Positions 38,115 to 60,880 of a stretch of DNA of 64,000 bases are shown one piece after another (the stretch's first letter is position 1; each line of letters opens with the position of its first letter). The notes below the pieces were generated by a model. That model was not told the DNA's origin. It saw only the letters and a program-made list of their open reading frames with translations, and did no database searches. The position numbers were made by a program, and so were the translations under genes. The DNA is from Chrysemys picta bellii (lineage: Eukaryota). The stretch lies in assembly GCF_011386835.1 (NCBI RefSeq), contig NC_088806.1, forward strand, positions 16,492,001 to 16,556,000, in the 5' to 3' direction.

Positions 38115-38146
<32 letters not shown>
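38115..38146. repeat. Compound (CT)n(CA)n microsatellite at the upstream edge of the A/B homology
   Basis: TCTCTCTCTCTCTCACACACACACACACAC read directly. Confidence 0.9.
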
Positions 38147-38287
38147 GAACCAACAGGCCAACTGAGATCTCCACAGTGACACAGAAACAGGTCTCACCCC
38201 TCATTCCCAGCAGCCGTGGCATTTTGCCACTTCCCCACACACACACGCTTGTGCCTTTGGGGGAGGCAGGGCTGGGGAGTCGCCTGC

Positions 38288-38383
38288 CAGAGCCGCTCAC
38301 CTGGGCAGGGAACGTTCTGCTCCGGGCTGCACGGTGACCATTAGATTGTAATTAGTAATTATCCCAGTCCCCGGGGATATAAA
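38288..38383 (+). promoter_or_regulatory. Gene A proximal promoter: conserved CACCTG-containing element, TAAT-rich tract, TATA box
   Basis: CAGAGCCGCTCACCTGGGCAGGG, then TGACCATTAGATTGTAATTAGTAATTA, then TATAAA at 38378. Homologous blocks lie upstream of B, C and D. Confidence 0.75.
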
Positions 38384-38501
38384 TATGGCTCAGTCCTCCC
38401 CCGGGAGCCAGTGCACCAGGTTTGCAGCCCCTGTGCCGCTCCTCACTCGCCTGACACGACCACACGGCTCCCCCCTCAGCTCGGCAGAGAGAAAACTAAA
38501 G

Positions 38502-40003
38502 ATGAACAAGATGCTGGCTCTGGGTTTGCCAGCCCTGCTCTGCTTGGCAACGGGTAAGTCCCGAAACAAAACCCAACAAGGGGAGATTTCCACCCCTGAT
38601 GGGGCAGAGCCTCAGCTGGTGCCAGTCCACAGTTCTTTACCGAGGGCAATTCAATGATAACCAACTATTCTAGCTCAAGGGCAGCCTGTGCTCTGGTGGA
38701 GGGACAGAACCGCCGCCCCTGGAAAGCCAGACTGGCCTAGCAGTGACCTGCCACAGAGGGTCGGATGAAATGAACCGGAGCAGGACAGCCGTTGGGGTTG
38801 GATGGTTCCTGGGGATGGGGAACGCGCCTGTGCACGGAGCATGGCCGATCCGTGGCTGCTCGTTGCCTACTCTCCGTTTTCTCGCCTCTTCACAGCGGAT
38901 CCTCTCCAGTGCAACGGCTGTTTCAAGCTGTTACAGGACGGCAGCTGTAAGATAGGCCAATACACCTGCACGGCATCTCCAGATGAATCCTGCTTCACCC
39001 GCAAAATCACCGCTGGTGAGTGAGAGTGACTGAGGGCACGTCGAGGCCAGGGCGGGAGGGGAAATGTCCAGCTCGAGGAGATACACCCATCGCTCTGCTC
39101 CAGCTAGCACACTGACAGCAGACGTGTAACCGGAGCGAGCGGTGGGAGGGGCCAGCTGCCCCAGTTCGATCCTGCCCAGGGCACTAGACACCAGTGCAGA
39201 CTGCACTTCTGTGCAGTCCAGTGAGCAAAAGATGCCCCATCTCTGGGGCAGTTAGTGCTGGGAGGGGAGAAGTGATTGCCTTACCCTAGAGTGACTTCTT
39301 CTGGCCACGCCGGCTGTGGCACTGGGGAACTGTGTTCATCCTTTAGGGTACGTCTGCCCTAAGGCGGGGGGGGAGAGACGTTGCAGCTCGGGGGAGACAT
39401 CCCCATGCTAGCTCTGACTGTAGCCACAGCAGCGTGAGACATGAGGGGCTAGCCCCCCCCACTCCCCAAGTCTACATGCCTAGTGTCTTGGATGGCCACT
39501 TACTCGGGGAGGCTGGCCTCACCTGCTGCTCGCTCTGGCATGGCTACCCTCTATTCTTAGTGCACTCGCTGGATCAGAGCGAGGGGAATGTCCTGCCTGA
39601 ATTGTAGCCAGACCCTTAGTCCATGAAGATGACTGGGACACTGGGGCATGGGGAGGGGTGGGGGAGTCCTCTAAGGACAGAGAAGGGTCCTGAGCTACAG
39701 GAAGTGGGGTGACAGAGGAGCCCCGGCTGCTGGGAGTCAACAGAGGGGAGGGCAACTCAGTTGGTGGATTCCCCTGGCCCTGTCACTGGGAGGAGGGGTC
39801 TGGCCCTGGCACCCAGCCCTGGGGGCTCAGGTCTCTTTCCCTCTGTAGGGAACGAGATCCTGCGGGTGGAGCGGGGCTGCACTGTGATCTGCGACGACCT
39901 AGTGCTCAACAACTACGACTACAAGGAGATCACCCAGTGCTGCACGGACAGAGCCTTCTGCAACATACACAACCCCTGGCCCCAAGCCCCCAAGGAGGAT
40001 TAA
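38502..40003 (+). CDS. Gene A: secreted PATE/ACRV1-like three-finger (LU-domain) protein, 108 aa; exons 38502-38553, 38896-39015, 39849-40003
   Basis: Canonical GT-AG introns, both phase 1. Spliced product: MNKMLALGLPALLCLATADPLQCNGCFKLLQDGSCKIGQYTCTASPDESCFTRKITAGNEILRVERGCTVICDDLVLNNYDYKEITQCCTDRAFCNIHNPWPQAPKED. It has a signal peptide, 10 Cys spaced C-x2-C-x8-C-x6-C-x7-C-x17-C-x3-C-x15-CC-x5-CN and a hydrophilic C-terminus. TATAAA at 38378, ATTAAA at 40172. The family name rests on recalled human PATE3/ACRV1 spacing and needs BLAST. Confidence 0.93.
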
Positions 40004-40473
40004 GGGGAGGGTGGGGTCCTGGGGCGGCAAGAAAGTCACATTTGCCCTTCGCCCCAGGCCTGGTTCTGGGTTATTCCCCAACTCGCCTTTCCTCATTGAA
40101 AACCTGGCAGGAACCAAGACCGTCCCCTGGCGTCACCCTCAATATCACACTCCTGACATCAATTAACTATAATTAAATTAGGAAATGAGCTCTGCTCACT
40201 GGCCCCGCCCTGCTTCGCCCCGGCCCCTCCCCTGCTTGGCTGCCCGCCTCCCATCTTGCTGCCCCAGGCCCAGCACCCAAACTCTCTGGTGCTTTGCTGC
40301 TGTTCCATAGTTGAAGGTGCCCGTATCAGGGTGACACACTCCCCCCAGCTGTCATTTCAGAGCCTCTGCTGCTGCCCCGTGAGAGTATTAAGGGGGCAGG
40401 ACTGGATTTAGGAGCAGGTGACCAAGGTGACCACCTGCGGTGCCAGGCTTTGGGGTCACCGGGCTTGGGGGAC

Positions 40474-41007
40474 TGTTTTTATTGTTAGCAACGAAATGGA
40501 AAGTAGAATGTTTGAAGTAACATGTTTCAGGTATTCCGTATGTGATTCATTTTGCATTAACCTCCTAGAACAGTGGTTCCAACCTATTGTGGGCCACATA
40601 CGTGTTATGGCCCTGAGGATGTCACATGGGCTGCAGCTCTGTGTTGATTGGATCGCAAGCAGCCCGCAAGCTGGAGGTTGAGAACCACTGTCCTAGAATG
40701 TTCTGGATCTTTGTAGAATCTCATGGAACTTTCCAGACTTTGAGAACGACACTCTCCACGAACTTCCTAGAACGTTGTCAGCCATGCTCTCGTGGGTATA
40801 TAAGGGGAGGGGCATTGCCACTCAGTGAGATATAAGAACAAACTGAAGCGAAGCAAGAGCCCAGCTGCGATATTGGGAACCTTGCTTTGTTGTGTAATTG
40901 TGAAAGTGTACTTGTGTTTTAAGACTTGAAGAGTGTAAGTAGCGACTAATAAAGGACATATTTAATGAGATGCCAGAGATAGCTATCGAACCTCTATCTA
41001 CGCAACA
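40474..41007 (+). mobile_element. Solo LTR nested in the hAT element
   Basis: TGTT...AACA termini, TATATAA at 40797, AATAAA at 40948. The left boundary is uncertain (40474 or 40483). Confidence 0.6.
40571..40690. mobile_element. 120-bp hAT MITE nested in the LTR
   Basis: TIRs CAGTGGTT / AACCACTG and a perfect 8-bp TSD TCCTAGAA. Confidence 0.9.
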
Positions 41008-41822
41008 GGATAAAAGAAATACTGTTACTTCTTTTGCCATGCTTAACATGTAATGTTTGATGACTTTCTAAGATTGCGGAACACAGACTTTTGCTTTCCC
41101 TAATACTGTCTGTTTTCCCACCTAGAAAATAAAAGATGCCCCCAAAGAAGCCTTCAGGAGCTCAGTACAGGAAGCGAAAAGCTCAATTGCAATCTAGTTT
41201 GCAGCAGGGGGCAAATTTTAACTAAAAGACTAGGGTTAACATCCTAAGGCTGTAACACTATTTAATACTGGACCACCCAGTGTTGGTGCACAGTTCCATT
41301 TCTTGATGTCAGTATATTTCAGTTATTCTTAAAATTAAAAAGTTTCTATACACTTAGAGCAAATCATTTGTTTTTAATTTGCTTATATAGGACATGAATA
41401 AATACAGATCCTAGCGTGCAAATTTATCGGCTTCTATGCCAGGGATAAATCACACATGCAAATCGTGCATCAAAGTCATGAAATGGGCTATAAATGCAAT
41501 AAAAAAATAAGGGATTCAAAAGTTTAACAAAGGGAGGGGAGCACTGAACAGGTTCTTCCCTAGGGGCCATTTGGTCTAGGGCACTGTTAAGGGAGGCCCC
41601 TCTCCCCAGACCTTGCTCTGTGCAGGGTGGGCAGTTTGCCAGCTTCAGAGGCTACAGTGCAGAGGGGACAACTTGCATGGCAACCAGTGGGACCCACTCA
41701 ATTCCCCCTCCGTCCTCCATGCTTCCCTGTACACTGGACCCCAGCAACACCGTGAGCCTGGTGTCTGCTCAGCACAGACCCCTGAAAACTGTAGACAAGC
41801 CCTAAGACGGATACCCAGTCCA

Positions 41823-41825
<3 letters not shown>

Positions 41826-41888
<63 letters not shown>
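41826..41888. repeat. (GA)n microsatellite, about 31 units
   Basis: Uninterrupted GA run; it explains the ERER/SLSL ORFs. Confidence 0.98.
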
Positions 41889-41893
<5 letters not shown>

Positions 41894-42639
41894 GCTGCCA
41901 GCAGGACAGCCTTCTTCTCACCTCCAGAGGTGAGGGTTAGCTGGGTTGACAGGAACTTACAAATGATTGCAAAGAGACATGGTAAGTGAGGGACTCTGGT
42001 GGTGACAGACAAGCTTTCGAGCTAAGCAGAGTTCTTCAGGTCTGGGAAAGGTACACAGAACATCCCAGCTAAATACAATATGGAACAGATTGTTTAACAT
42101 AAGTAGTTAACACATATTCTAAGGGACCATTCAAGGTGAAGTGACCCATTAACACCCCTGCAGTCACAAGACAAAAGATGGAGTTAGTGGATTACAGATT
42201 GTTGTAGTAGGTCTTATAAACAGGTATATCACTGGACAAATGCACCATGAAACCAATGATATACCTGAGACACATCGTGATATTTTCATCCTCTGGACAG
42301 ATGACCTAAACTTCCTCATATATTTCCACTACAACTTCAACCACCACCACCCATCCATCAAACTCTCTCTAGAGCACTCCTGCACCTGTATCAGCTTCTG
42401 GATTCTATTCAAGCTGATTGTAGTGTCCTACAGACAACTATGTACAAGAAACCCATATATCACCACACATACTTTCACAGATCCAATAATCACCCCAAAC
42501 ACCAAGAAATCTGTTATCTACCACCAGGCACTCAGATACCACAGAATATGGTAGAAAGGAGGAGAAAGTCTAGGATACACACTAAAAACTGCCTTTGCCA
42601 AACAAGGACCCCCCAGAGCAGTACATCAGTTACTCCTGG

Positions 42640-43405
42640 GGAAATTCTATGCCACTGCGTGTGCGCAGAATTCATGTCCCCCACAGATTTCTTTGCTTCC
42701 CTGCAGAAAAATGACTTTGACAGGGAAGGAAAGTGGAGCTGCAAGAGCAGTCACGCACCACTCCCTAGCTGCACAGGTACATCGTTTCAGGCAACTGGAG
42801 CACCCGAAGGAGACATAAATCTCTGTGGGGCTGGGGACATCCCAGCCAGTGGCTCCTATCCTGAGCCAGGATCAGCTGCTAGTCCTGGCTGGGCTGGAGG
42901 CAGGAGAGGACAGGACTTCCTCTTCCCCTGCAAGTAGTGGCTGGTGCTGTGTCAGACCCACCCCCAGAAACCTCCCCCAGCTGCAGGAAGCTCAGCATCC
43001 TCCCCTGCTTCCTCCCCACATCGCTCTTCACCTGTGGGGGGAGGGGTCACTGTACCGGGAGCTGTACAGACACAGCTGTGGGGAGTGTGTCTTGCTCCCC
43101 CATGCATCTGGACCTCCCATCCCAGACACCCCTGCCAAGCCTCACCCCGTACCCCCCCCAAGCCCTCCATACCCAAACCCCACCCCACTGAACCTCAACC
43201 CCTGCATCTGGAGCCCCCTGCTTTCAGACCCCCCCAACCCTGCACCCAGACCACCACCCACTGAGCTCCCTGCACTCAAACCCCCATTCTGATGAGCCCC
43301 ACCTCCCCGCACCACCCCGAGCCCCCACATCCAGATCCCCATGCCACTGACTTCCAACTAGCTGCACCCAGGGCACAGAATTTTTAATTTTTTGGTGCAG
43401 AATGA
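42640..43405. mobile_element. DNA-transposon-like insert with C-rich internal repeats
   Basis: GCAGAATT motifs near both ends and CCCCAAGCC-type repeats; it interrupts the Penelope remnant. Confidence 0.5.
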
Positions 43406-43409
43406 ATCC

Positions 43410-43790
43410 TAGAATATCAGGGTTGGAAGGGAGCTCAGCTGGTCATTTGGTCCAACCCCCTGCTCAAAGCAGGACCAACCCCAACTAAATCATCCCAGCC
43501 AGGGCTTTGTCAAGCCTGACCTTAAAAACCTCTAAGGAAGGAGATTCCACCACCTCCCTAGGTAACCCATCACCACCCTCCTACTGAAAAAGTTTTTTCT
43601 AATATCCAACCTAAACCTCCCCCACTCAACTTGAGACCATTACTCCTTGTTCTGTCATCTGCTACCACTGAGAACAGTCTAGATCCAACCTCTTTGGAAC
43701 CCCCCTTTCAGATAGTTGAAAGCAGCTATCAACTCTCCCCTCACTCTTCTCTTCTGCAGACTAAACAATCCCAGTTCCCTCAGCCTCTCC
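43410..43790 (-). mobile_element. CR1 LINE 3' fragment
   Basis: Reverse complement of the CR1 3' end (AGAATATCAGGGTTGGAAGGG) and of FRLDIRK-type coding sequence. Confidence 0.88.
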
Positions 43791-44061
43791 TCTCTTCCCT
43801 CAGGAGTAATCAGTGGAGCCACCCCAATACCCCTAGAGAGCTTGCTTCAATACAATACAAAAGCTTGTCTCTTTCACCAACAGAAGTTGGTCCAATAAAA
43901 GATCTTACCTCACCCACTTTGTCTCTCTAATATCCTGGGACCAACACAGCGACAACACTGCAAACAAAAGTGATTGCGAAGAAAGATTACGGTGGAGGTA
44001 ATGGGAAATACGAGCAGAGAACGTTCTGGTTTTACCCTCCTTGCTCTGAGAGCTATGTACC

Positions 44062-45576
44062 TGTAAGCAGAGTCAGGATGAGCTCTACCCTGACATCTGG
44101 TGGTGAATTATGGCGAGGGTGGAAAAGAACTCCAGGGGCTGATCTTGTTTGCATAGGCACACCCACTCGCCTGGCATGAAACCACAGCAACTCAAAGTGG
44201 TTACTTTGGCTGGTGTGGGATCCCCAGTTTCTCTGTTATTGGGGCAGGAAGAATAAAGTTTTGTTACCCTGATTCTGTGAATCAAGGCCAGTGGAACTGT
44301 TGTATGACAGAAGGACTGAGTGAGTCATTCACCATTACCTAAGTAGCATTTGCTTGTCAAGGGGCATGGGTTACAAAACCCAATGAATTGAGAGAGGATG
44401 GGGACAGGTATTTGTACCTGATGGTGTGGCCCCCTTCCAGAGGGGGTTGAAACACCAATTGCACTACCTCCTCTCTCCAATGTTGAATGTCAGAGCTAAC
44501 TTTGATTCCCTTAGGAGTCTAGTTACAGACTGCTGAGCTGAGTTCACTTTGGGCCAATAGTGCACCAGCACTGGGGCTCCCCTACTACTAGCTGAAATCA
44601 CTAAGAGCTGAAATCACAAAAGAGCTAAAGCTATTTAAGAGCTGAGATCACTGAGGCTGTGTTAACTAGTGGGGGAGCCTGAAGCTATATTGCTAAGCTA
44701 ACTTAGCTTAGCGGGGGTGAGCGGAGCGGAGCGGCTCACAGGTCGGTGAGCGGAGCGGCTGGAGGAGCAGCTAGCAGAGCAGAGCCTTGTGGGAGCGGCC
44801 CAAGGGACGGCTGGAGCGGAGCGGAGCGGAGCGGCTCACAGATCGGTGAGCGGAGCGGCGCAGCTCACAGGTCGGTGAGCGGAGCGGAGCGGCTCACAGG
44901 TCGGTGAGCGGAGCGGAGCAGCGCGGCTCACAGGTCGGGGAGCGGAGCGGAGCGGAGCGGAGCAGCTGCCAGAGCAGTTCGTGGGACTGCGGGTGGAGTG
45001 GAGCAGTTTGTGGTGAAGGCTGCAGTGGAACCCCACGGAGAAGCAGCCGGTTGGCCTCGGATCACGTAAGGTGCCCCTTAACACCCTGCTCACCCCCCCC
45101 TTTGAACTCTGGGGCTGCACTGATCATGGACAGAGACTTTGGGGGGTTGTCGGACTTTTGGGACTTTTGTGATTCTTGGGTTGCTGGACCCAAGAGACTT
45201 TGGGATTGGTGGACTTTTGGGACTTTGGTGATTCTTGGGTCGCTGGTTTCAAGAACCAATGGGAGAGGACACGGCCCAATTTGCTGGGGTGGGTCTTCGC
45301 TCATGGTTTGGTCTAAAAACTCTAGTTGTGGTGTTTTTTCCATTTAATGCTGATGTTGTTTACCTCATGTTATTAAACATTTTCTGTTACACTCAGACTC
45401 CGTGCTTGCGAGAGGGGAAGTATTGCCTCTTAGAGGTGCCCAGGGGGTGGTATGTAATTGTCCCAGGTCACTGGGTGGGGGCTCGAGCCGGTTTTGCATT
45501 GCGTTATTGAAACGGAACCCCTAGATACAGAACCCGGCCCTTGTTGCTGCCAACTTAGATGGGCAGAAGGGTTACA
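44062..45576 (+). mobile_element. Complete solo LTR (Gypsy-like), 1515 bp, with internal (GGAGC)n/31-mer tandem array at about 44715-44965
   Basis: TGTAA...TTACA termini and a perfect 4-bp TSD TACC on both sides. Orientation is not certain. Confidence 0.9.
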
Positions 45577-45899
45577 TACCTTTGGGTGACAGATTAAATA
45601 ATGCTTTGTTTTGAAGATGCTTTTTCTGAGTCATTTTAATCCGTTGCTGGTCACAGGCTCCGGGGGCGGGGGGGGGGGGAAGGGCTTGAAAATGCTCAAC
45701 CCAGTTGGGCCTGCCGATTTAATATGGTTGGTAAAAAAGGGGGCTGTAACCCAAAGACCCACTCTAAGAGTTGTTGGACCCAGAGGTTCTGCCCAGAGGG
45801 GAAGCCCGGCCTGTTACCTGAGGGGTGCACTCAAGAGGGGCAAAAAGGGTCTAAGGTGCAGTTTGCCTGGTAACCGTAACACACGTGATCTTGATTGCT

Positions 45900-46240
45900 T
45901 TGTCTCAGCGATCTGGCCTCTTCATTACTTACCACTCCTCCAGCTTTTGGAACTTCTGCAAACTTCATCAGGAATGATTTCATACTTTCTGCCAGGACAC
46001 TGATAAAAGTGTGACGTAGTGTAGTAGGGCCAAGAACCAGTCCCTGCAGGACCTCACTAGAAACACACCCATTCGACGATGATTCCCCATTTACAAATTA
46101 CATTTAGAGACCTATCATTTAGCCAGTTTTTAACCCATGTAATATGTGCCATGTTGATTTTGTATTGTAGTTGCCTCTTAATCAAAATGCCGCTTGGCAC
46201 CAAGTGAAATGCCTCACTAAAGTCTATGACATCAACACTC
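45900..46240 (-). mobile_element. CR1 RT fragment
   Basis: Reverse complement of DVxxxDFSEAF, GVLQGLVLGP and KFAEVPKAGG-like segments. Confidence 0.75.
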
Positions 46241-46359
46241 TGTGCGTGTGGATGGGCGGCTGGCTGGACGGGCAGGCGGCATATTTGGGAATATATTTAT
46301 TTGCTTCACAGAATTGCATCTGTTGACCATTGACCTTGGCCTGATCTTGGTTTTGAGTA

Positions 46360-47600: not shown

Positions 47601-47794
47601 TTACCATTGTAATAACTGATCTGATTTTTTTCTTAATAAAATAGAACCCAACAGGCCAATCGAGAGCTCCACAGTGGCTCAGGAACAGGTCTCACCCCTC
47701 ATTCCCAGCAGCCGTGGCACTTTGCCACTTCCCTCCCGCTTGTGCCTTTGGCAAAATGCCCCTGTGGGGGAGGCAGAGCTGGGGAGTCGCCTGC

Positions 47795-47890
47795 CAGAGC
47801 CGCTCACCTGGGCAGGGAACGTTCTGCTCTGGGCGGCACCGTGACCATTAGATTGTAATTAGTAATTACTCCAGTCCCCGGGGGTATAAA
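47795..47890 (+). promoter_or_regulatory. Gene B proximal promoter (near-copy of A promoter)
   Basis: Same element and TAAT tract as A; TATAAA at 47885. Confidence 0.75.
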
Positions 47891-48009
47891 TCCCTCTCTG
47901 TCCTCCCCCTGGGAGCCAGTGCACCAGGTTTGCAGGCCCTGTTCCGCTCCTCACTGGCCTGACACGACCGCACTGCTCCCCCCTCGGCTCGGCAGAGAGA
48001 AAGCCAAAG

Positions 48010-49374
48010 ATGAACAAGATGCTGGCTCTGGGTTTGCCAGTCCTGCTCTGCTTAGCAACGGGTAAGTCCCGAAACAAAACCCAACGAGGGGAGATTTCCA
48101 CCTGATGGGTCAGAGCCTCAGCTGGTGCCAGACCAGTCAGCTGAGGTCTTTACCGAGGGCAATTCAATTACAACCAAGTATTCTAGCTCAAGGGCAGCCT
48201 GTGCTCTGGCGGAGGGACAGAGCTGCCCCTGGAAAGCCATCCACCAATGTGGGGGAGGGGCATGGCTGGTTCCACGCGGCCGGGAAGCTGTTTTGGTGTC
48301 TTTGTCCGGTCACCAGTCTGGGCCCGGCTGCTTGTTTCCTACTCTCTCTTCTCTCTCCTCTCCCACAGCTGCAGCTCTCCAGTGCAACGGCTGTTTCATG
48401 ATGCTACAGGATGGCAGCTGTATGCTAGGCAAACACACCTGCACAGCCGCGCGGGGAGAATCCTGCTTTACCCGTAAAATCACTATAGGTGAGTCTGGGA
48501 GGCCAAGGGCCCCTCAGAATGCAATTTAGGAGCTGCCAGGATGTGAGGGAAGAACACCTTACTCTAGCGTGACCCCTTGTGGCCAAGCTAGCAGCGGTGC
48601 TGGGGAGGGCCTCACAGCCCAACCCTCAGCTGGAGCATCTACACAGCTATTTTTAGTGCCATAGTCTGTCGACCTGGCTCTGAGATTTGCTGCTGCTCGC
48701 TAGGTGGGTGCCACATTCGTCCCTTAATCAAGGACGGTGACTACGGGGATGGCGACAGAGCAATCCGAGGCGTGACTGAAGCACTGTAGACAGGCCAGAG
48801 CTAGCGGTCATCTAGCTAGCTTGACTAACACTAGCAGGGAAGCTGTGGCATCAGGGGTGACAGCGCAGCTAGCCACGGGCGTATGCACCCGGAGTCCCGG
48901 GGGGGCTCGTACGACCTGTGCTGACGTAGCTGCCCTGCTGTTGTTACTGGAGCTCGCTAGATCACCGCTAGCTCCGGCCAGTCTACAGCGCTTCAGTCAC
49001 GGCTCTGACTGCAGTGTAGACAGACCCTGTGACACTGGGACAGGCAGAGGTGGGTGTCCTCTGAGGACAGAGAGAGGGACCAGCAGGTTTCTTCCCCTGG
49101 AGCAGTGGGAAGAGAGTGGCAGGGGAGACAGAGGAGTCCTGGACAGAGGGGAGGGCAGCTCAGCTGGGAGGAGGGGCCTGTCTCTGGCACCTGGCTCTTG
49201 TCTCTCTTTCCCTCTGCAGCGGGCTTTATCAATCGTGTGGAGCGGGGCTGCACATCCATCTGCGAGGATACAGAGATCCCTGAAGACTACTACAAGGACA
49301 CCACCCAGTGCTGCACAGATGGGGACTTCTGCAACATCCACAACCCCTTCCCCAAATTCTCCGATTATGCCTAA
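48010..49374 (+). CDS. Gene B: secreted PATE/ACRV1-like three-finger protein, 108 aa, closest paralog of A; exons 48010-48061, 48369-48488, 49220-49374
   Basis: Spliced product: MNKMLALGLPVLLCLATAAALQCNGCFMMLQDGSCMLGKHTCTAARGESCFTRKITIAGFINRVERGCTSICEDTEIPEDYYKDTTQCCTDGDFCNIHNPFPKFSDYA. Exon sizes (52/120/155) and Cys spacing are the same as A. TATAAA at 47885. Confidence 0.93.
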
Positions 49375-51631
49375 GGGGAGACTGGTGTTCAGGGCTGGCA
49401 GGAGCTCCCTTCACCCCACCCCTGGCTCTGGGTTAGTCTCTCACGCCCCTCGCCTCATGTAAAATCCAGCAGGACCCAAGACCATCCCCTGGTGTCATCC
49501 TCAATCACACGCTCCTGTTAGCTACAAATGATATTTAAATTAGGAAATGAACTCTAATCTCTGGCCCCGCCCCACTCCCCCTGGCCACGCCCTGCTTCCC
49601 CTTGGCCTCTCCCCTTGCCTGGCTGCCCTCCTCCCATCTTGCTGTCCCAGGTCCAGCACCCAAACTGGTGCTTTGCTGCTGTTCCGTAGTTGAAGGTGCC
49701 TGTATCCCCCACAGCTGTCGTTTCAGAGTTGCCGCTGCCCCGTGAGAATATTAAGGGCCCCCCCACCCTTCCCCAGACATCGCTCTGTGCAGGGCAGGCA
49801 GTTTGCCAGCTTGGGAGGCTACAGTGCAGAGGGGACACCTTGCATGCCAACCAGGGGGACCCACTCAATTCTCCCTCCATGTTTCCCTGTACACTGGGCC
49901 CCAGTGACACCCTGAGCCTGGTGTCTGCTCAGTGCAGACACCTGAGACAGAGCAAACACAGCACAACCCACAGCTCTCAGCTCCAGACAGGCTGTAAGAG
50001 GGTCGATACCAGGTTCTTCCCCCGGCAACTAGTTGGCAGAGCCATGCCTGGGACAGGAACCAGGACAGCAGGGCACTCAGGGATTTCCTCCTCTGCAGCG
50101 TGCCCAGCTCCCTGCCTGGCTGGTCCCCCGGAGCTCCCCCTGCCCTCGGAAATGAGTCCTGCCCGTCTCCCTGCCATGATCCAAACCCCACTGTGCCTGG
50201 GGCAGTCCTGATCTCTGAGTGATCCTGGAATGGGGTCACTCTGTACAGATCCCACCATTCCATTCAGCCCCCACACACTCTGAACCGCTGCCTCCCTGCC
50301 ATGCCCAGGGTGGGATCCTGGCTTGCTGTATTTGCAGCTGAGATTCTGCTGATGAAACACCTGCGCTTATCTCCCTCTTTGTCATATTCTGCTCGTTTCT
50401 TTCCTTGCGCAATAAACCCTCTGATTGTCACAGAGCTCTCAGGGCCTTCGTTTCTTCATACACAGTCAGGGGACAATGTATTTTCAGACCCATATTTAGG
50501 ACAGTAGCTTCTATCACCACCCCTACGTGTCCAAAAATGGCAGAGGTTCTGCTAGGACATCTCCCTCTGGTAGGTAAAGCAGAGTGCCTGGCCCTGGGGA
50601 ATTCACCCAAGTTCTTCCCCTTGGTAGGGCGGGTCTAAGTGGAACTCTTAGGCCCCAGTGATGGCAGCAAAAGGTCTGGGTTCAACGTTCTCGGGGTTCC
50701 TTCCTTAGCTGACACCGACTTGATCCCCTCACCAGAAACCAATGAAATGATGTACCCGTCCCTGAGCACCTTTGGTGGGCAATTCTTCCCCATGCACCAG
50801 GACCGAGTCCAGGGGTTAAAACAAAGAGAACTTTATTAGGGTAGGGGAAAAGGGGAGGCAGACAACAGAATGAATTTGGGGAAATCAGTAATTAACGAAT
50901 TCTAAGGAGGTAAAACTCCTGCCCCACAAAGTATCTTAACAGCAGTCCCACCCTCAGTCCTCGGGAATGGTGGACGATATGCTGGCCCTGGCTGGGCTGT
51001 TGGGACCGAACTGGTACTGCTGGACTCCCAGCCACTGCCCGAGGGACACGGAGCACTGCCCTGAGGGGTGTGGGTTACACAGGCCCCAGGCTCAGGGCTG
51101 GCTCCAGGCATTCGTGGGAGCCTGGCGGATGCAGAGGGGATTGAGCGGGGCTGTCTGGTTGGCAGGCACGGTGCCCCATCCCTCAAACACCAAGGGAGGG
51201 CACTGGAGCCTTCCCCACTGGCAAACTGCCTACCCTGTTCAGAGCCCTGCCAGGGGAAAGGGGCCCCTTAATGCTCTCAGGGGGGTAGGGGCTCTGAACG
51301 ATAGCTGGGGGGGGTCACCTTAACCCACAGCACCACAACAAATCCAATATCCAAGGGAGTCATAGTGCTGGGCCTGGGCCAGCGAGACACGGGGAGGGGG
51401 CAGGCAGGCAGGACAGGGGTGAAAGGGGAGGGGGCCATGGGAAGGGGAGGGGCCAGAGGACAGGAGAGGGCAGGCATGGGCCACAGCAGGTCTTGGATTC
51501 TGGTGGGTTTTTCATCAGACTGGGGAAACCAGGAGAGAAACCAGGAGGGACGGGGGAGGGGAGAACGTGGACTTCCTCCAGAAGTGCAGCTGCCCCCAAG
51601 TGAGTGGGAAGGGAGGCGGCGTCCATGGCCC

Positions 51632-53791
51632 CTAGGCATTGCAGAAGTCTTCAGTGCAGCAGCGGAAGTCGTGATGGATGAACGTGCCTCCGACTTGGTC
51701 CTGGCAATCTCTGAAGCAGCCCTGCTGTGCATAGAGAGGGAAGTTCCCTGGAAAAAGAGAGAGAGCCATGAGTCCCCAGGGCTGGGCGGCAGGGACAGAC
51801 GCCTCCTCCCTAGGACTGTGCCAGAGGAATCCAGTGTCTGGTCCGGCCCCCCAGCCAGAGCATCACCAACTGAGCTGCCCCCCCGTCTGTCGATAGCCAG
51901 GAACCATGTCTCCTCTGTCACCCCCCGCCATTCCCTTCCCACTGCTCCAGGGGAAGAGACCTGCTGGTCCCATTCTCTGTCCTCGGGGACTCCCCAACCC
52001 CTGCCCTTCCCTACAGTCACAGTCACTGTTCTGGACTAAGGGATGAACATGGCTCCCTTCCGAGCTCCCCAGTGTCCTGCCAGCTTGGCAGCCATGGGTC
52101 ACTCCAGGCCCAGCAGAGACCCTCCTAGTCCCCACCCTCCCAGCGGCTGAACTTGCTGCCCTCCAAAACCTTGAGCCCCAGAGATGGGGCATCTGTGTTC
52201 ACTGAAAACACCAGCCCGGGGAGCGGGGGGGGGGCGTGCCTGCCACCCGCACCTACCCAGGAGGAGTGTCTGGAGGTAGCAGGATTCCCCCGGAGCTGCC
52301 TTGCACATGCTTTTCCCTGCAATACACGTCTTGTTCGGCTGCTGTCTGACACACACGTGGCACAGGAGGGCGCCCGCTGCGTGACAGGAGAGAGAAGAGA
52401 ATGACACAACTCGCCGGGCGCAGAGGGCCACCGGAGATGGGCAGGGAAATAGAGTCACCCGTCTGATCAGGAGCGTGGTGACAGGGAGCTCTCGTGTCCC
52501 TGTGTTATAGAAAGGCTGAGTGTGAATCGGCATGGGGAGCTGACCAAGCCAAGCCCATGAAATAGAAACTCATCAGGATACACACACTAGCTCTGCCTCT
52601 GACTCTCTAAATAATTGACTTATGAATTCACCACAATTGTTCTAGTGGCTTTTCAGATTTTTAAAAGGTACATCGCTGTGTTTGTAAAGCTTTTTCCTTC
52701 CTCTTTTGTTGTCCCAGGACCCAAAGAAACAGGTGTGGAAACTGACTAATTGACTATACCCAGGAAATACTGTAACTGACTTAACAGAGGGCTTAGAAAC
52801 ACAAAGTAAATTGGGAGGAAATAGGAAAATACCTCTCTCTCTGATCCTTTCAGTTACAATGAGTTTTTAATTTATTAATCTAGTAGTTAAAATATTTCCA
52901 ACAGTGTGATTTCTATGTGGAGGGTGAATCAAACCAATCTGAAGACCCATTCCAGTTTTTCTGTGCTGCTTATGAAAGAGTTAGTGAATATTTTCAAGTG
53001 CGTGGGGGGAAAAAAACCCATTCAGCATGAATCTCAAGGAGGTCAGCAGCCAGTCAGATCTCTCTATTCCGCAATCCCTGTGGCAGCATATAATCTTTCC
53101 TACCCCTATAATTTTATTAAAAATTTAATATAATGTGAAAATCACAGAGTGACTCACGTAAGTGATTGGCACTGGCTTCTGCTCACCATTTTGCAATACA
53201 TGTCACACACTTCTTTGTCTTGGAGAAAAGTACTGGCAACATTCACTGCTCAGGTCAGCTCAAAATCCCCCTCACTTGTGAAACAAAGGGGCTAGGTCTG
53301 TCTCTGCCAACTGCCTGGATTCAGCACAGCTCGACTTAGCGACTGCCAGAGACGTTTCTAACAAGCTCATGGCCCTGCTGTATTTGGCCATGTTTGGGAG
53401 GCATGTCGCTGGTTTGCAGAACTCAACAGCCCTGTCTCAGTCTTACGAACCCGTCCATTTCCCTGTATTGGCTTCAGAACACTGCTGATGTTATCTGTCC
53501 CTCCGCAGGTCCTTCCCTAGGCCAGCCTGGCTTTGCCAAGGCATCTGTCACTAATGCAGAACACAGGCTGCTCTTACACTACAGTGGGTGAATCCCCTCC
53601 CTAACCAACAAAGGCCAGCTCCTTTGCTGCTGTACATCATCCTAGCTAGCTCCACTGACGTCGATGGGCCAGCTCCCCGATGAAGCCGAGAATCTGGCCC
53701 CTTTGGGGACGAATTGGTCAGTTTCGTTTGGGGACTTACCCGTTGCGAAGTACAGCAGGGCTGTGAAAACAGGAACCAGCATCTTGTTCAT
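51632..53791 (-). CDS. Gene C: secreted PATE-like three-finger protein, 95 aa; exons 53740-53791, 52257-52376, 51632-51747
   Basis: Spliced product: MNKMLVPVFTALLYFATAGALLCHVCVRQQPNKTCIAGKSMCKAAPGESCYLQTLLLGNFPLYAQQGCFRDCQDQVGGTFIHHDFRCCTEDFCNA. It has 10 Cys, ends CNA-stop and has GT-AG phase-1 introns. A TATA-like TAATATAA lies at about 53899-53906 (-) and a candidate AATAAA at 50832-50837 (-). Confidence 0.92.
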
Positions 53792-53898
53792 CCTTCGTTT
53801 TCTCTCCTTCAAGCGGAGGCGGAAGTGGCACGGTGTGCTGAGCGAGTGAGAGCCCGGGCAGTGTGCAGAGTATGGCACACCTCAAACACCAGCCGGAG

Positions 53899-54053
53899 TT
53901 ATATTACCCCTAGTGGAGACCTGGCAGCAGCCAATCAACGTCCTTCCTGCGGGAAACACCCAGGTTTTTCTGTTGATTAATAATCATATCCCCAGATTGG
54001 ATCGAATGGTCAGTCCAGGAGCAAAGCGATTCCTGCTCAGGTGACCAGCTCTG
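53899..54053 (-). promoter_or_regulatory. Gene C proximal promoter
   Basis: Minus strand reads CAGAGCTGGTCACCTGAGCAGGA, then TGACCATTCGAT, then GGGGTAATATAA. Confidence 0.6.
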
Positions 54054-55359
54054 GGCAGGCAGCTGCCCACCCTCCCCAAAGGCTGGGGTTGGACTGGGCT
54101 GGTGCCAGTCGCCCAGGGCTCCCATAGGGTCCCTACCAATGTCCACAGAACATAAATGGGCCTTTTTAAGAATTAAACGTTTTACCCCATTACTGTGAAT
54201 AAAACCTTCCAACCAGGCCCGATGCACAGCTGGCCGCTGAGTCTGCGTGGCTGAGACACACCCCGCCACCCCCGGGGAGAGGGGAGCCAGCTGCAATAGA
54301 GGAGGCCCCAGCAGACTGGCAGCCCCTTGCAAGTCCCACTGCTGGGATGTGGAGGGCAGCAGAGCTAGTGGCTCTACTAACAGAGAACGCCCTGGCCACA
54401 GGCAGAGTCCCACCAGCTGTTATGGAGAAAGGCAGCGTGTGTCCCAGTTACCAGCAGGGCAATTGGGAGCTGGGATGGGGGATCAGGACTCTGGTGGGAC
54501 AGTGGGCGAGGGCAGGCAGGACGGGAAGCTCACTAAGAAACCTGGAGCCCCCAATGGCTGTGGGAGTGGGGAGCTGCAGCACCCCCCTCAGCTCATGCGC
54601 TTGGAAAGGTGCAAACTCCTCCAACCACACTGCCTGTGCCCCTCATCCCCAGAGAACAGAACCCCATGGCCTGGGATCGGCCCACCTGAGCCTGACCACT
54701 GCAAAGGCCACCGAGAGAACATGCTGAGAAGGTGGGTGGCAGATTTCCATCAGTATTTTTAGCCCAGCAGCGGGGGCAGCGCAGGATCAGAAGGATCCAA
54801 TTCATTTAGGGACAGAGTCTGCGGCTCGGCCTGTCCCAGGGTCACTCTAAGCCCAGCACAATGGGATGCCCCCTTTGTGGGGTAGTTTGGACTGTCTCAG
54901 CCACACACTATTTAGTCTTGTCACACTGGCTGCTGGAGGCCAATGACCGGGCCCCAGAGGGACCTCACTGGTGTTAGCCAAGGCGTCCAACTCAAGCAAT
55001 GACATTCCACCTCCTGAAACACCTCCTCTCTGGTAGTTTCAGCTGGACAGGGGAGACATCATCAAGTCCTGTCCTAAACCTGGGCTGTGTTGCTGTGCCC
55101 AGTTAAGGAGCTGCCTCGTTCTGCCCTAGTGGTGGCTTCATATTCCAGCCTTAGGTGAAGGGGCTGGTAGCACCACCTATTATTATGGTTGCCCAAGACA
55201 TCCCATTATAGGGCCCTGTTTTCAGCCAAACTTTAGCTAGTTAGACTGACATTTTCCATGACCGGTGTCTGCCTCTGGCTGAATTTTCTTGGAAAGTTTC
55301 AGCCAAAATGGTCCAGCTGTTTCTGAGAACAAGGCTAGGGGAAGTTAGACATAAAGGTA

Positions 55360-55538
55360 GCTCTGGAACAGGCTTCCAAGGGAGGCTGTGGAATCCCCAT
55401 CAGTGGAAGTTTTTAAAAACAGGCTGGACAAACACCTGTCATGGATGGTGTAGGTGTCTGGGTCCTGCCTTAGTGCCGGGGGTGGACTTGGTGACCTTTC
55501 AAGGTTCCTCCCAGCCCTACACTTCTGTGATTCTATGT
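55360..55538 (+). mobile_element. CR1 3' end
   Basis: WNRLPREAVESPS-like segment followed by GTGATTCTATG. Confidence 0.85.
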
Positions 55539-56619
55539 GGGGCTAAGAGGTTTCCCTGAGACTGACTGTAAAACACAGGGGCTAGCTAGGGGATTGATTG
55601 CTTGCAGCTACGTGTGTGTGCCAGCATCAGCACGCAAGACAAGCAGGAGTGAGCATGGCCCTGACAGGAAGCTGAGCGACAGGGCTTCTGTTTGGGCACA
55701 GTGCCGGCTGGAAATGCAGACTTGGGTTTCTGTGCAAAGAAACTGTCTGCTGTTCGGTTCTGCTTTGTATAGGGAAATAGGACTTTGTGGCCAGTCTTTT
55801 TACTAGACAGGATTGCACCAAAGAAATACCTGACTCTAACATCAGTCTCTCCTCCTAATGGAAATGACGCACAAAGTCCCAAATACTGGCTAACCACTTG
55901 GACCAAAAGGGGTAACAGGTTTGCGTTTGGATGGGCTGTAGCATGCAGTGTCCCCCCGTCTGTGCTGGCAGGGGGAGGGGTCCTGCATGGGGGCCAGGGT
56001 GTGTTAGCAAAGAGGGTGATGTGCTGGGTGCTCTGAGATTTTAAAGGCACTTCCTTAGCACGAGACACGTGGGTGAATTTAGCAATGTAACGACACAGAC
56101 AACATCAGTCAGATTTGTTTGCCCCTTGGCCCCACTCAGGACATTAGTGCATTGATGCTTCGGCATGATTTGCACATACAGCACCTGACACAAAGTGGGC
56201 TACTCAGTGTGCTGGGTTCAGCGTGACCCTGGGACGTGCCAAGCCGCAGTCTCTGGCCCCAAACAAATCGGCTCCGTTAGATCCAGCGCTATCCCCGCCA
56301 CAGGGCTAAACATACTCCCACCAGCTGTCACCCACGCTCCCAGCATGTTCCCCCCCGTTGTGTCACTTCCAGCCAGGTGCAACGAGCTCAGGTGGGTGGA
56401 TCCAGAGCGCAGTGTTCTGCTCCCTGGGGCTGTATGGGAGCAGAACCAAGCTAAGCATGGCCTGGCCAGATGTTGCAGGGCAGTGGTGGTGTTTTGTCTC
56501 CCCATGCCGTGGGAGGGGGGGCTCCGTCCCATTTGCATGTTTCAGGGTTCATAGTACTTAGACCATCACATCTCATTAGAGGAGAGTCATTAGGAACTAG
56601 TCAATGCCTCCTCCAGAGA

Positions 56620-57200
56620 CACACAGCTACCAAACCCTTTAAAAAAAATGCAAGAGCTTGCCCAGTTTTCACCACGCCAACCCAACCCAGTAGATCACTC
56701 CAACGGCTGCCCAGTGTCCAACCTCCTATAATAATTGAGAAAGTCGTAACCACGCTGGTCCAACAACAGGCAGCTGCCTCCCAGCAGGGTTCAGACCAGG
56801 GCACAGCAGAGACAGCCCCAGTGGCACTGGAAGCTGACATCCTCGTGGCCATGGACGCAGGTCAGTTCTCTATGAACATGTTGCTGGACCTCTCTGCAGC
56901 CTTTGACACAGTGCACCATAAAGTACTGCTACCCGCCGACACGGTATCACAGGAATAGCTGAGCCAGCGCTGCATTGGCTCTAATCAGCCTTCTGTAGCA
57001 GAACTCAGAACGGCCGTGGGGAACGGCACCTCTCCAAAGGCCCCGCTGTGGGTCCCACAGGGATCCCTCCCATCCCTGCTTTTCTTCAATGGCTGGGAGA
57101 AAGCATGAGATGCCATGGGCTGAGATGCCAGTATGGTGCCCCTGACACTCAACCCTGTCTCTGCCTCTCAGCTCATGCACCCACAGCTACTGCTAACCTA
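56620..57200 (+). mobile_element. L2-clade LINE RT fragment
   Basis: IEKVV, GTAETA, DILVAMDAGQFSMNMLLDLSAAFDTVHH, then VPQGS-like and HGLRCQY-like segments. Confidence 0.88.
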
Positions 57201-57865
57201 TTGGGATGCCTACAGGAAAACAGCTCCTGGTGAACCGCAGCTGGCTCCAGCTGAACCCCATTTCATCCCCTCTCCCGCCCTTTTCACTCTGAACGGTCCT
57301 GATCCTGCAAACCTCTGCAGGGATGCAGCCCCCGTGTCCCTGCGGTGTCCTGCCGAAGTCAGGGGGGGGAAGGGCCACACAAGCAGGTCCCATAGAGCCC
57401 AATCCTGCCAGATGCTCCATGCACTACTAGTAGCAACCCCCGACTAGGCTGGCACGAATGTCTTGTTCTTTTCCATAAAACCCCCACCCTGAGGGGCCTC
57501 TGCAAAGGGATGCCATGTGTCCCTGTCACACATGCACGTGGCCGGTGATGGGAACTTGCTATACACACACTGCTCTGATGTGTGTAATGAACAGCCTTAA
57601 AATAAACCAACTTCACCTCGGTGGGCCAAATGCTGAGCCGATGGGGAGGGACTCTGGACTCACACGGGTGTATCTGAACTCAGGATCTGGGCCACCGAAT
57701 AACTTGGGATCTCCTCTCCATCAGTTACACCAGCCTGTCCTGACAGGCTTCAGCGCTCTCCCATAGTACCCTTCCCCTGGCCAGCAGGACTGCAGCTAGT
57801 TTGCCTCTTCCATCCCTCTGCCCTTCAGCCGAATTTAATCTCTGATTAGCACATTTATGGAGGAG

Positions 57866-57990
57866 GAGCCGCTCATCTGGGCAGGGAGTGTCTTGCCCCC
57901 AATCTGTGATACGACAAGAGTCCAACAAGTAAGCTCCTGGGACTGCATGTTGGTTCCTCCCAGGACTGGCCCTTACCCTGGGGGTATAAA
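57866..57990 (+). promoter_or_regulatory. Gene D proximal promoter
   Basis: GAGCCGCTCATCTGGGCAGGGA at 57866 and GGGGTATAAA ending at 57990. Confidence 0.65.
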
Positions 57991-58089
57991 TCCAGCTCTG
58001 CCCTGCCCAGCAGCCACTGAGCAAGGTTTGCAGTCCCAGGTTCCCCACTCACCCCACACGACCGCAGCTTTACGGCGACGAAGCTAAAG

Positions 58090-60880
58090 ATGAACAAGCT
58101 CTTGGTTCTCGGCTTCTCTGCCCTGCTCTGCTGTGTCTCAGGTGAGTCCCTGAAACAAAACAGGGGGGCTGGGAAGCTAACTGGCGACTGGCAGGAGGCA
58201 GAGCGGGCTATGCGATTTTGCCCTCTCCAGGTTGAAACCAGCTGTGCCCATGACGTTCCTGCCAATGGGATTGGCCCTTTACACTTTCCATGGCCATTCT
58301 GCTGCGCTGGGGCATAAAATCTCCCTGATTCCAGGTTTACTCCACACTCCTTGCAAATTAACACAGGAATCAGAGTCTCAACGTTCCCCCGACACCTCCG
58401 GGAGTGACTGTCCAGCCCCTTCCTTAACAGCAGCAAGTGCCTGCGCTGCAGTGACAGGATTCCTGGCGGGCCCAGGGAATAGGGGTAACTGGATGAAATT
58501 AACTGTCCTGTGCTATACAGGAGGTCAGACTAGATGATCTACGTTCCCTTCTGGTTTTAAAATCTAGTCTCTTATGAACCGGATCTTTCCAAGGTCTGCA
58601 AGCAGCAGATTGCAAACCCACACCCCCGTGCACACTGTGCTAGTTCATTCCATGCAGCGTATCCAAGCTGCCTATCAAGGGCATGGGAACGTCCCTGGAG
58701 ACACGGAACACAACTAACAGAGCGGTCCAGCAGTTACTGTCCTTGTGTTGCATTCATAGCGCATTGCACAAAGAGCTCCTGCACTTCACTGCTGGATGGC
58801 GACTAACAGCATTTGTCTCCTGTGTAACCAAACCCCTGCCAGATGCTGGCAACTGGCTTCCTGTGGGCTCTGGAGACACTGCTTAGCGGTCATGGGGAGA
58901 GCCGTTGGTTGCCAGAGACCCTCTCCACACCACAGCCCCCACTCGTCTTTGTGTTACGTGCCTCTGTCCTTAGGGATTGGAAACCAACTGTTGCCCAGCC
59001 TTGCCTCCTGCATTATAGCCTCTAACAGGCTTGCTTCCCCCTAGTGGAGGGACATTGGCATGGGCTACTGCCAGCCCAGGGAAAGATTTACCTTGATCAC
59101 GAGCTGACTCTTTCGCCTGGCTTGCTTCTCCGCAGGCCTCTTCTTTGGCTCCATCTGCATCCAACCTGCTCTTTGTGGGGCTGTCTTTGTTGTCACCTGG
59201 CACTCTCTCCATGGCAGGTGCATGGGGAATTCTGTGGCCTTCGCCCCTAACTGATTCCTGTCTGGCTCTGTGTGGGTTTTTCTTCCAGCTGAAGCCCTTC
59301 GATGTACCGTTTGCCAAAACAAGATACCCGTCTTCGGCTGCATCAAAGGATTGGGCATCTGCCACCCTGCGCCAGGGCTACCCTGCAAATACATCAGAGT
59401 CTATACCAGTATGTATGTCCTGAAACGGGCACTCACCAGGGGGTGGCTTATAGCAGCTCACTCTGCCGGGCCCCAAATGAGATATCCCTTAGTGAGCCCT
59501 TGTGGCCAAGGAATGAGATGAGTCTCGCCTTCTGGCTGGGTGTCCAGGCAAGGGCTCTTGGAGCTACCTACACAGCATTCTATTTAACCCCTGCTTCCAG
59601 AGCTGTTGGGTCAGGAACTTGGAGTGACAGTAATGGGCTGTGAAGAGCTACTTCCCTCTCTCCAAGGAGGGTCCATCCTAGGGCCAAGACGGGAAGAGGG
59701 CTGGCTTTGGAAAGATGGCTTAACTGCATGCACACCAGGCCAGCAGGAGCCATGAGGATCAATGGAGACACTGAACCCATGGCCAAAGGGGGCCTTATTC
59801 ACCAGTACCAGCCCATGCAGTGCCATAGTGGGTGCGCTGCACCAGCAAACCCAGGCAGAGGACACAGACTAGTACTGGGCTCTTCTTTAGAGCCTCCCAA
59901 GAATCTCAAACAGTGAAATGAATGAATGGAAGCCACAACATGCCTGCGAGGTAGGTGAGAAGACTATATGGGGCATATCACCCAGTTCTGAAAGGCAGTC
60001 ACCTTGGGGAACACAGCAGCTGTTTAAGTGGGGACAGCACTTTAGGGCAGGAAATAAAGAAGAATCTGGTAGCCCAGTGAAATGACATTAGGAACAGTCC
60101 ACTCAAAGGTTGTGTGTGTGGCTGAGACACCAGTGTTTACTCCCCTCTTCCTATCAGAAGGAACATGGGAGCTTCAGTGAGCATCTGGGAGCACTTCAGA
60201 CCTAAATCCCAACTTGATAGTGCTGGGATCCATGCTGAACCCCCCCAGCTATGTAACTGGCTTAGCTTTTTGTCCCCATCTCCAGTGGGTACCCAAACGC
60301 TGAGCTCACAGAGTAGGACTGAAGAACATTGGTTGGTTGCCATGCTATTGTTGGGAGTGGTCCTTTGGAGAAGACTTTAAACCAAGCTCTAGTCTGCTCC
60401 AGCAGAATTTAGCCATTTTCCCCAGCACAGAGTTATGTGGATAACCCCATGGGTCCTGATCTTTAATGATCCATATGTGTTCACACTGTAGAGTGGGGCA
60501 GCAAGAGCAGTTCTTTACCTCCATGTTCTTTTGAGGGTCAGCACTCTCATCTCTTTCTTGGCCCACGTGTCTTGTTGGCCTAAATGTTAGATCTAGCCCG
60601 AAGAGCAGAGTGAGAGGAAATGCGTGCATAAACTATTTCTGGTTAGACACTCCACCTTTGCCACTGAGTTGGACTCAGCAGGCACTTGTGAGAATCTTGG
60701 AAGGAGTCCTCGTTCCTGAGTGCATTGTCCTGATGTGTTTTCCCTCCCTACACAGCAGGCATCCAGTTTCATTCACAGGCAGATTGTGCTGTGCAAGGCG
60801 ACAAATGCAACATCATGGAGCCAACGAAGTCTGGCCACCGCCAAATTTCCTGCTGCAAGACTGACTTCTGCAACAGTTAG
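58090..60880 (+). CDS. Gene D: secreted PATE-like three-finger protein, 98 aa, most divergent paralog; exons 58090-58141, 59289-59408, 60756-60880
   Basis: Spliced product: MNKLLVLGFSALLCCVSAEALRCTVCQNKIPVFGCIKGLGICHPAPGLPCKYIRVYTTGIQFHSQADCAVQGDKCNIMEPTKSGHRQISCCKTDFCNS. It has 10 mature Cys and ends CNS-stop. TATAAA at 57985, AATAAA at 61129. Confidence 0.92.

Follow-up and report, generated by a model that had tools for sequence, protein, structure and literature searches.

Four genes for predicted secreted three-finger proteins beside CHEK1 in Chrysemys picta bellii very probably mark the ACRV1/PATE locus of a turtle

The mammalian PATE cluster (human PATE1-4 at 11q24.2, mouse Pate1-14 at 9A4) is a tandem array in the CHEK1-HYLS1-DDX25 block. 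Its genes have three coding exons and encode a signal peptide and a single LU domain of ten cysteines that ends in Cys-Asn (CN), with no glycosylphosphatidylinositol (GPI) tail. Human ACRV1 and PATE1-4 have been placed at 11q24.2 (PMC4839075, PMC6600238) and rat Pate genes between Acrv1 and Ddx25 (PMC3316536), and the PATE motif is given as C-x2-C-x7/8-C-x6-C-x7/8-C and C-x3-C-x15/16-CC-x4/5-CN (PMC3316536, PMC3192744). PATE proteins are described as acting in the mammalian epididymis (PMC3192744, PMC6744855), most mouse Pate genes as epididymal, and sperm migration as impaired by deletion of the cluster (PMC6744855). No description of a reptile PATE/ACRV1 cluster was found in the literature covered; supplementary Ly6/uPAR trees of two papers (PMC8488580, PMC10421932) may include such sequences. 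Here we describe four genes, A to D, in a window of 64,000 nucleotides of the turtle Chrysemys picta bellii (C16:16492001-16556000), and argue that they belong to this family.

We rebuilt the gene models from the window DNA; A, B and D lie on the plus strand and C on the minus strand. Gene A comprises exon 1 (38502..38553, 52 nt, signal peptide; TATAAA 124 nt upstream), exon 2 (38896..39015, 120 nt, Cys1-5; PF00021 at E 5e-5) and the coding part of exon 3 (39849..40003, Cys6-10, a 12-residue tail and the stop; joint 39014-39848 in run X3). Gene B comprises exon 1 (48010..48061) and exon 2 (48369..48488, with a Pfam match), both placed by the rebuilt model and run-contig joints, and the coding part of exon 3 (49220..49374; joint 48486-49218 in X3 and X10). 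Gene C runs from the coding part of exon 1 (53740..53791; joint 52376-53740 in all four runs compared there) through exon 2 (52257..52376, modelled with run-contig joints and containing a predicted N-glycosylation site, N32) to the coding part of exon 3 (51632..51747; joint 51746-52256 in X1 and X2). Gene D comprises exon 1 (58090..58141, with run-contig joints and TATAAA 105 nt upstream), exon 2 (59289..59408, rebuilt model and run-contig joints) and the coding part of exon 3 (60756..60880), the acceptor of which is fixed by the joint 59408-60756 in X3. All four genes have 52-nt and 120-nt first coding exons, GT-AG phase-1 introns and an MNK start. They encode predicted proteins of 8-10 kDa and 108 (A), 108 (B), 95 (C) and 98 (D) residues, and the spliced products are identical to the database proteins P0047, P0021, P0040 and P0028, respectively. 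The original prediction of four intact three-exon genes at these positions was thus borne out by the rebuilt models, the identical database proteins and the splice joints described below.

A motif scan found four Cys motifs of the exon-2 type and four of the exon-3 type in the window, and none in 30 dinucleotide shuffles or in 40 flanking 10-kb loci. Each mature part has ten Cys and the CC-x4/5-CN end that are the hallmark of a single LU domain; the signal peptides, called by eye without a predictor, hold a further 1, 1, 0 and 2 Cys in A, B, C and D. After CN, 12 residues follow in A and B and one in C and D, and the tails are not hydrophobic (grand average of hydropathicity −1.7 for A and −0.6 for B). 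The Pfam cut-off was passed by B (PF00087) and C (PF00021, PF00087) and narrowly missed by A and D. The predicted PATE/ACRV1-type Cys spacing held for A and B (both 2,8,6,7,17,3,15,0,5), which fit the published PATE motif, and failed for C (2,8,6,7,17,3,14,0,4), one residue short at x14, and for D (2,8,6,7,17,6,14,0,4), which deviates at x6 and x14.

The last coding exon of CHEK1 lies at 63687..63782 on the minus strand, tail-to-tail with D (Chk1 C-terminus, PDB 5wi2, E 1e-14), and its end is 2.8 kb from the stop codon of D. Beyond it follow kinase exons, then STT3 (28-38 kb past the window end) and SRPRA, 200 kb farther. On the far side of A, some 325 kb in which no coding exon was recognised precede CDON, a DDX19/25-type helicase and HYLS1; HYLS1 lies about 540 kb from A, with CDON in between, and a crude exon scan recognised no coding gene in the 240 kb upstream of A. 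Across C16:15.95-16.76 Mb the order is HYLS1, DDX25-like, CDON, a gap, A-D, CHEK1, STT3 and SRPRA. Motif and tblastn searches of 40 flanking loci, and a motif search of 34 others, gave no further LU gene. A PKNOX-type match lies 2.5 Mb from the cluster; an EI24 family search gave no match, and we do not claim EI24 or FEZ1. In human, CHEK1 and STT3A adjoin ACRV1, and the gene order around HYLS1 differs from that of the turtle. The comparison suggests an inversion of the cluster-CHEK1-STT3 segment relative to the human order.

The GPI-tailed LY6 array of this turtle was found, by a search for its LY6 genes, on another contig (C2, 285.2-285.6 Mb). Nine of the ten models rebuilt there have the spacing 2,8,5,6, and nine of ten have hydrophobic tails of 27-31 residues. 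Genes A-D are thus located inside the CHEK1/STT3-HYLS1/DDX25/CDON block that holds the PATE/ACRV1 cluster, and they very probably occupy the ACRV1/PATE locus. The anticipated synteny with CHEK1 or with HYLS1/DDX25 was found on both sides, the CHEK1-STT3 position supports the family and locus call, and the competing case, flanks belonging to the LY6 locus, does not apply with the array on C2.

We searched for relatives with a hidden Markov model (HMM) profile built from 14 turtle sequences, as word-based protein searches reached almost only turtles and other clades were reached only by the HMM. It matched 188 proteins at E <= 0.001, of which 150 were listed and 24 of these named by look-up. Among the matches listed, the strongest outside turtles was a gecko (Paroedura) "acrosomal protein SP-10" (3e-21). 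Other strong named matches came from Podarcis (7e-19), from Rhineura and Candoia as "PATE14-like" (2e-17 and 7e-16) and from platypus as "PATE3" (4e-15) and "PATE4-like", with unnamed proteins ranking among them; eutherian ACRV1, PATE1, PATE3 and PATE4 ranked below the squamate and platypus proteins. Three of the Podarcis matches come from contigs of one and the same length (44,568,424). None of the 24 named matches was a PATE-type protein from a crocodilian, a bird or an amphibian, though this does not show that such proteins are absent there.

The main tree was computed under a mixture model from 73 rows, chosen from 143 by removing long and redundant rows; "squamate" is a guess for its unnamed rows, and the turtle C2 LY6 genes stood in for the LY6/SLURP/three-finger toxin (3FTx) cluster, as no row was a named SLURP or 3FTx. 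In this tree A and B grouped with squamates (99/88) and C with other squamates (95/74). Both groups together with platypus PATE4-like formed a clade (98/89) apart from the C2 LY6 genes (97/88), and a quick tree gave the wide group a Shimodaira-Hasegawa-like approximate likelihood ratio support of 92. An approximately unbiased (AU) test rejected A, B and C with the LY6 array (p 0.035). It also rejected a turtle-only clade (p 0.008), so that the radiation expected for turtles was not borne out as a turtle-only event; A/B and C each group with squamates. Across turtles the genes are conserved one-to-one, A and C being 82% and 80% identical to those of the pleurodire Emydura, and the predicted N32 site of C also occurs in Podarcis P0061 and Candoia P0066.

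On these comparisons, A-D appear to be old lineages kept one-to-one rather than a turtle radiation or direct orthologues of ACRV1 or PATE3. We infer from the trees that the A/B-type and C-type lineages predate the turtle-squamate split and that the locus was present in the amniote ancestor. The family likely predates the mammal-reptile split, because the CHEK1-side position is shared with mammals and relatives occur in lizards and platypus; squamate and monotreme relatives fit the proposed amniote origin of the cluster. The phylogenetic check as a whole separated A-C from the C2 LY6 genes and gave no supported clade with eutherian PATE/ACRV1.

In Chelydra, P0054 and P0192 represent a further C-like paralogue, 49% identical to C, with no counterpart in the Chrysemys picta bellii genome; a GPY(T/N)WH stretch is common to this paralogue and Podarcis P0115. 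The P0056-P0118 group contains many cationic PATE-spaced proteins, squamate where named and some predicted as fused tandem domains, and is apparently a larger, undescribed squamate expansion.

The turtle set differs from the mammalian PATE cluster in having four genes only, without supported one-to-one orthology to mammals, and in the distance of HYLS1 with CDON between. With ACRV1/SP-10 (P0160), A and B share the complete spacing, as had been predicted from ACRV1 and PATE3, and human ACRV1 lies tail-to-tail with CHEK1 as turtle D does. Orthology did not follow: the turtle genes lack the long disordered repeat exon that precedes the LU domain of ACRV1, the AU test rejected A/B with ACRV1 (p 0.026), and D, the gene next to CHEK1, is the least ACRV1-like (10.9 bits). 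The LY6E/SLURP/LYNX cluster and snake 3FTx share the fold and the exon phases of A-D, but the turtle array of this type differs in its contig, spacing and long hydrophobic tails. RefSeq, in which P0047, P0021 and P0040 are labelled Chrysemys picta bellii, names these three "secreted protein of Ly-6 domain 1-like", "prostate stem cell antigen" and "protein PIP-1-like", and leaves P0028 unnamed. Orthologues in other turtles carry "acrosomal protein SP-10" (A or B orthologues in several turtles), "prostate and testis expressed protein 3(-like)", "secreted seminal-vesicle Ly-6 protein 1-like" and others, as had been guessed of automated annotation. These automatic ACRV1, PATE3, PSCA and SSLP1-like names on reptile genes are inconsistent. 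Since ACRV1 and PATE names are already in use for these genes in RefSeq, the four-gene set is a sound extension of the known PATE/ACRV1 family to sauropsids, and its proteins are already in databases.

Spliced products were sought in Logan contigs from 6 of 24 listed runs, whose RNA status is a tool's guess ("RNA?"), none of the runs listed being recorded as RNA. Seven of the eight introns of A-D were bridged by RNA-type contigs, four (B2, C1, C2, D2) with at least 31 letters on each side and three (A2, B1, D1) with 26-28 letters; for A intron 1, no bridging joint was among the joints shown. A poly-T loose end in X3 indicates poly(A) addition of C near 50816. In X3 all four genes were covered at a contig depth of about 770-3600. 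X14, from the same organism and study and compared with A and B only, gave 0 on the A exons and about 20 on the B 3' end; X1, X2, X5 and X10 gave 0-8 on the genes covered, and all five runs other than X3 ranged from 0 to 23. The X3 pattern hints at joint expression of A-D in one tissue.

Low-depth spliced contigs on the minus strand (59384-59091, 58148-58052, 53945-53740) run antisense to D exons 1-2 and into C exon 1, with CT..AC joints in X1, X3 and X10; they represent either an upstream 5' untranslated region of C or read-through from CHEK1. Between A and B, a repeat insertion at 43800-45600 contains GGAGC-rich tandem arrays of 29/34/58 nt, and many contigs cover it in each of the four runs compared there; further repeats lie at 41900-43800.

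The 5' tract of A (38146..38729, plus strand; promoter, exon 1 and start of intron 1) aligned with that of B (47643..48239, plus strand; 47643-48239 in the alignment). These 5' 600 nt are 87% identical, with 96% in exon 1 and 152/162 at the start of intron 1. In the mature exons, dS (synonymous divergence) is 0.55 and dN (nonsynonymous divergence) 0.28, a dN/dS of about 0.5, and intron 2 aligns at 54% (Fisher p 4e-8 for the contrast). Residue 4 is Met in both A and B of this turtle and Ile in the A and B genes of the ten other pairs. Gene conversion likely homogenised the two 5' regions, strong selection on a shared regulatory element being the alternative. A TGACCATT...TAATTA/ATTAAT element is conserved upstream of A (38333-38360), B (47841-47868) and C (about 54010-53975), was not seen upstream of D, and is a candidate for a tissue-specific site common to the three genes. 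The sequence up to 600 nt from the starts of A-D contained no hormone-response palindrome.

Structure prediction covered A. The AlphaFold model from 78 sequences (predicted local distance difference test, pLDDT, 86.5; all-beta core) replaced a first model from 14 sequences (pLDDT 62.6, no Foldseek match at E 0.001). Its best match among 48,161 chains was GPIHBP1 (Z 9.6, root-mean-square deviation 2.7, 78 aligned), followed by CD177, TEX101 and LYPD6B, and toxins reached Z <=7.1 (irditoxin 7.1, bucandin 6.8). A is predicted with high confidence to have the three-finger LU fold, with Gly-Asn at the tip of loop II; having this fold in common with other proteins says nothing about function. Genes A and B encode acidic proteins (isoelectric point, pI, about 5), C is neutral and D is basic (pI 8.75, net +5). 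Charge is also positive, from +3 to +11 net, in the four named squamate relatives for which it was measured.

We propose that A-D are turtle members of the ACRV1/PATE locus encoding anchorless three-finger proteins, which the epithelium of a duct, most probably in the male reproductive tract, would secrete together. As soluble, disulfide-stabilised modulators they would bind receptors on sperm or epithelial surfaces. By homogenising the promoter and signal exon of A and B, gene conversion would keep the two co-expressed as their mature domains diverge toward different partners. We consider this explanation as a whole probable, with appreciable doubt, and favour the male-duct role to about the same degree; secretion, tissue and target are argued from homology only.

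Several points weigh against this proposal. The mouse mechanism runs through ADAM3. Mammalian members of the family also include placental or seminal-vesicle genes, so the tissue has shifted within the family. The runs carry no tissue label, and contig depth is a weak measure of expression. In other row sets, support for A/B with squamates fell to 90/81 and 82/87; the backbone was not resolved over 77-100 columns, and no tree contained a supported clade of the turtle genes with eutherian PATE/ACRV1. The groups compared by the AU test were named after earlier trees had been seen, and the squamate and platypus matches were compared as proteins. D, with six residues between Cys6 and Cys7 and x14, falls outside the published PATE motif, and it fits HEP21/LY6G6C (p 0.39) or the LY6 array (p 0.27) as well as the squamate group (AU p 0.44).

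The D profile scored highest with two unnamed proteins (53.8 and 48.8 bits), a Sceloporus protein (45.0) and the HEP21-type proteins P0103 (44.8) and P0106 (42.7), against 11-21 bits for eutherian PATE/ACRV1, and in one tree D grouped with HEP21/LY6G6C (90/84). D also shares with HEP21 and the MHC-type (major histocompatibility complex) LY6G6C/LY6G5B the longer Cys6-Cys7 gap and similar signal peptides. HEP21 and LY6G6C are separate turtle genes on C12: a HEP21-type gene at C12:25003278-25007218 (L061, L062) ends at CN without a tail, and a LY6G6C-type gene at C12:3.03 Mb has a hydrophobic tail of 26 residues. P0103, which is unnamed in the database and which we take to be HEP21-like, matched C12:25.0 Mb at E 3e-9 (60% identity) and D only at E 0.27, so that D was rejected as the HEP21 orthologue. 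The D promoter and first exon (57976..58161, plus strand; 70% to A) aligned over 205 columns with those of A and B at 68-70% (E 1e-22), and the best of 26 other loci reached E 3e-4. Because this match far exceeds those of other loci, D reads as a local paralogue of A/B, while its domain stays unplaced between the squamate proteins and HEP21/LY6G6C. A broader scenario, which we hold only tentatively and consider rather unlikely, is that the PATE/ACRV1 founder in the amniote ancestor was an MHC-type LY6G6/HEP21-like gene which moved next to CHEK1 after losing its GPI tail or in the course of losing it, D being the intermediate that survives. The turtle-squamate split would then postdate three or four lineages (A/B, C, a Chelydra-type paralogue and D), and the family would have arisen as a secretion of the sperm duct along with internal fertilisation on land.

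The same locus could instead serve a female role, in oviduct or egg-white secretion like that of chicken HEP21, itself a secreted reproductive-tract LU protein, or in oviductal sperm storage. The HEP21-type scores of D, higher than its eutherian PATE/ACRV1 scores, and the HEP21/LY6G6C grouping in one tree point this way, as do the oviduct expression of HEP21 (PMC7071030) and the placental expression of mouse Pate11/12 (PMC6744855). A separate HEP21-type gene is present in this turtle on C12, however, which at 60% and E 3e-9 leaves D (E 0.27) far behind, and we regard a female role as unlikely. The HEP21-like label of P0103, moreover, is ours and not that of the database.

A role in defence or chemosignalling, in skin, cloacal, musk or kidney epithelium and antimicrobial or pheromone-like, would suit the positive charge of D and of the measured squamate relatives. 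E. coli is killed by rat PATE (PMC3316536), and amphibians secrete three-finger proteins that serve as pheromones (PMC13719153). A and B are acidic and C is neutral, however, and one-to-one retention at 80-82% to Emydura, with an A versus B dN/dS of about 0.5, is not an arms-race pattern; such a role therefore seems improbable.

If LY6G/HEP21-type or LY6 genes had reached the CHEK1 flank once in sauropsids and once, independently, in mammals, the likeness to PATE would come from coincidence of position and from generic LU spacing. The missing supported clade with eutherian ACRV1/PATE rows would then be expected, and the first-motif spacing 2,8,6,7 is also found in platypus LY6G5B. This requires two insertions into the same intergenic slot, and on the A/B profiles platypus PATE3 and PATE4-like scored 49-56 bits against 34-36 for LY6G5B and 6-28 for LY6G6C, which makes an independent origin very improbable. 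No venom gland is known from turtles, and nothing in the present results speaks for toxin-like or nicotinic-receptor activity, points counted against toxin-like nicotinic-receptor antagonists related to snake 3FTx. That reading, for which the shared fold, the matches to irditoxin (Z 7.1) and bucandin (Z 6.8) and reports of some PATE proteins as nicotinic acetylcholine receptor modulators (PMC4839075) speak, is extremely unlikely, as 3FTx derive from the TOP1MT-linked LY6 cluster and not the CHEK1 locus (PMC10421932), non-toxin LU domains rank above toxins in the structural comparison, and A and B are acidic, A with Gly-Asn at the loop II tip.

Between STT3 and SRPRA lie two BRICHOS-domain genes (L013:4582-4698, L015:4061-4189 and L015:7363-7479), one of which includes an exon resembling the surfactant protein C propeptide; we know of no BRICHOS genes in the human STT3-SRPRA block. 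A ribosomal protein S3a-like sequence at L011:6738-7325 is probably a processed pseudogene.

The literature covered describes PATE/ACRV1 as a mammalian cluster, and the turtle set would date the family to the amniote ancestor. The value of A-D rests on how old the family is, on gene D, which stays unplaced, and on promoter homogenisation, and not on a new kind of protein or a toxin. With A-D, the turtle would offer a small model, slow in its evolution, of a family in which redundancy hinders genetic work on the mouse.

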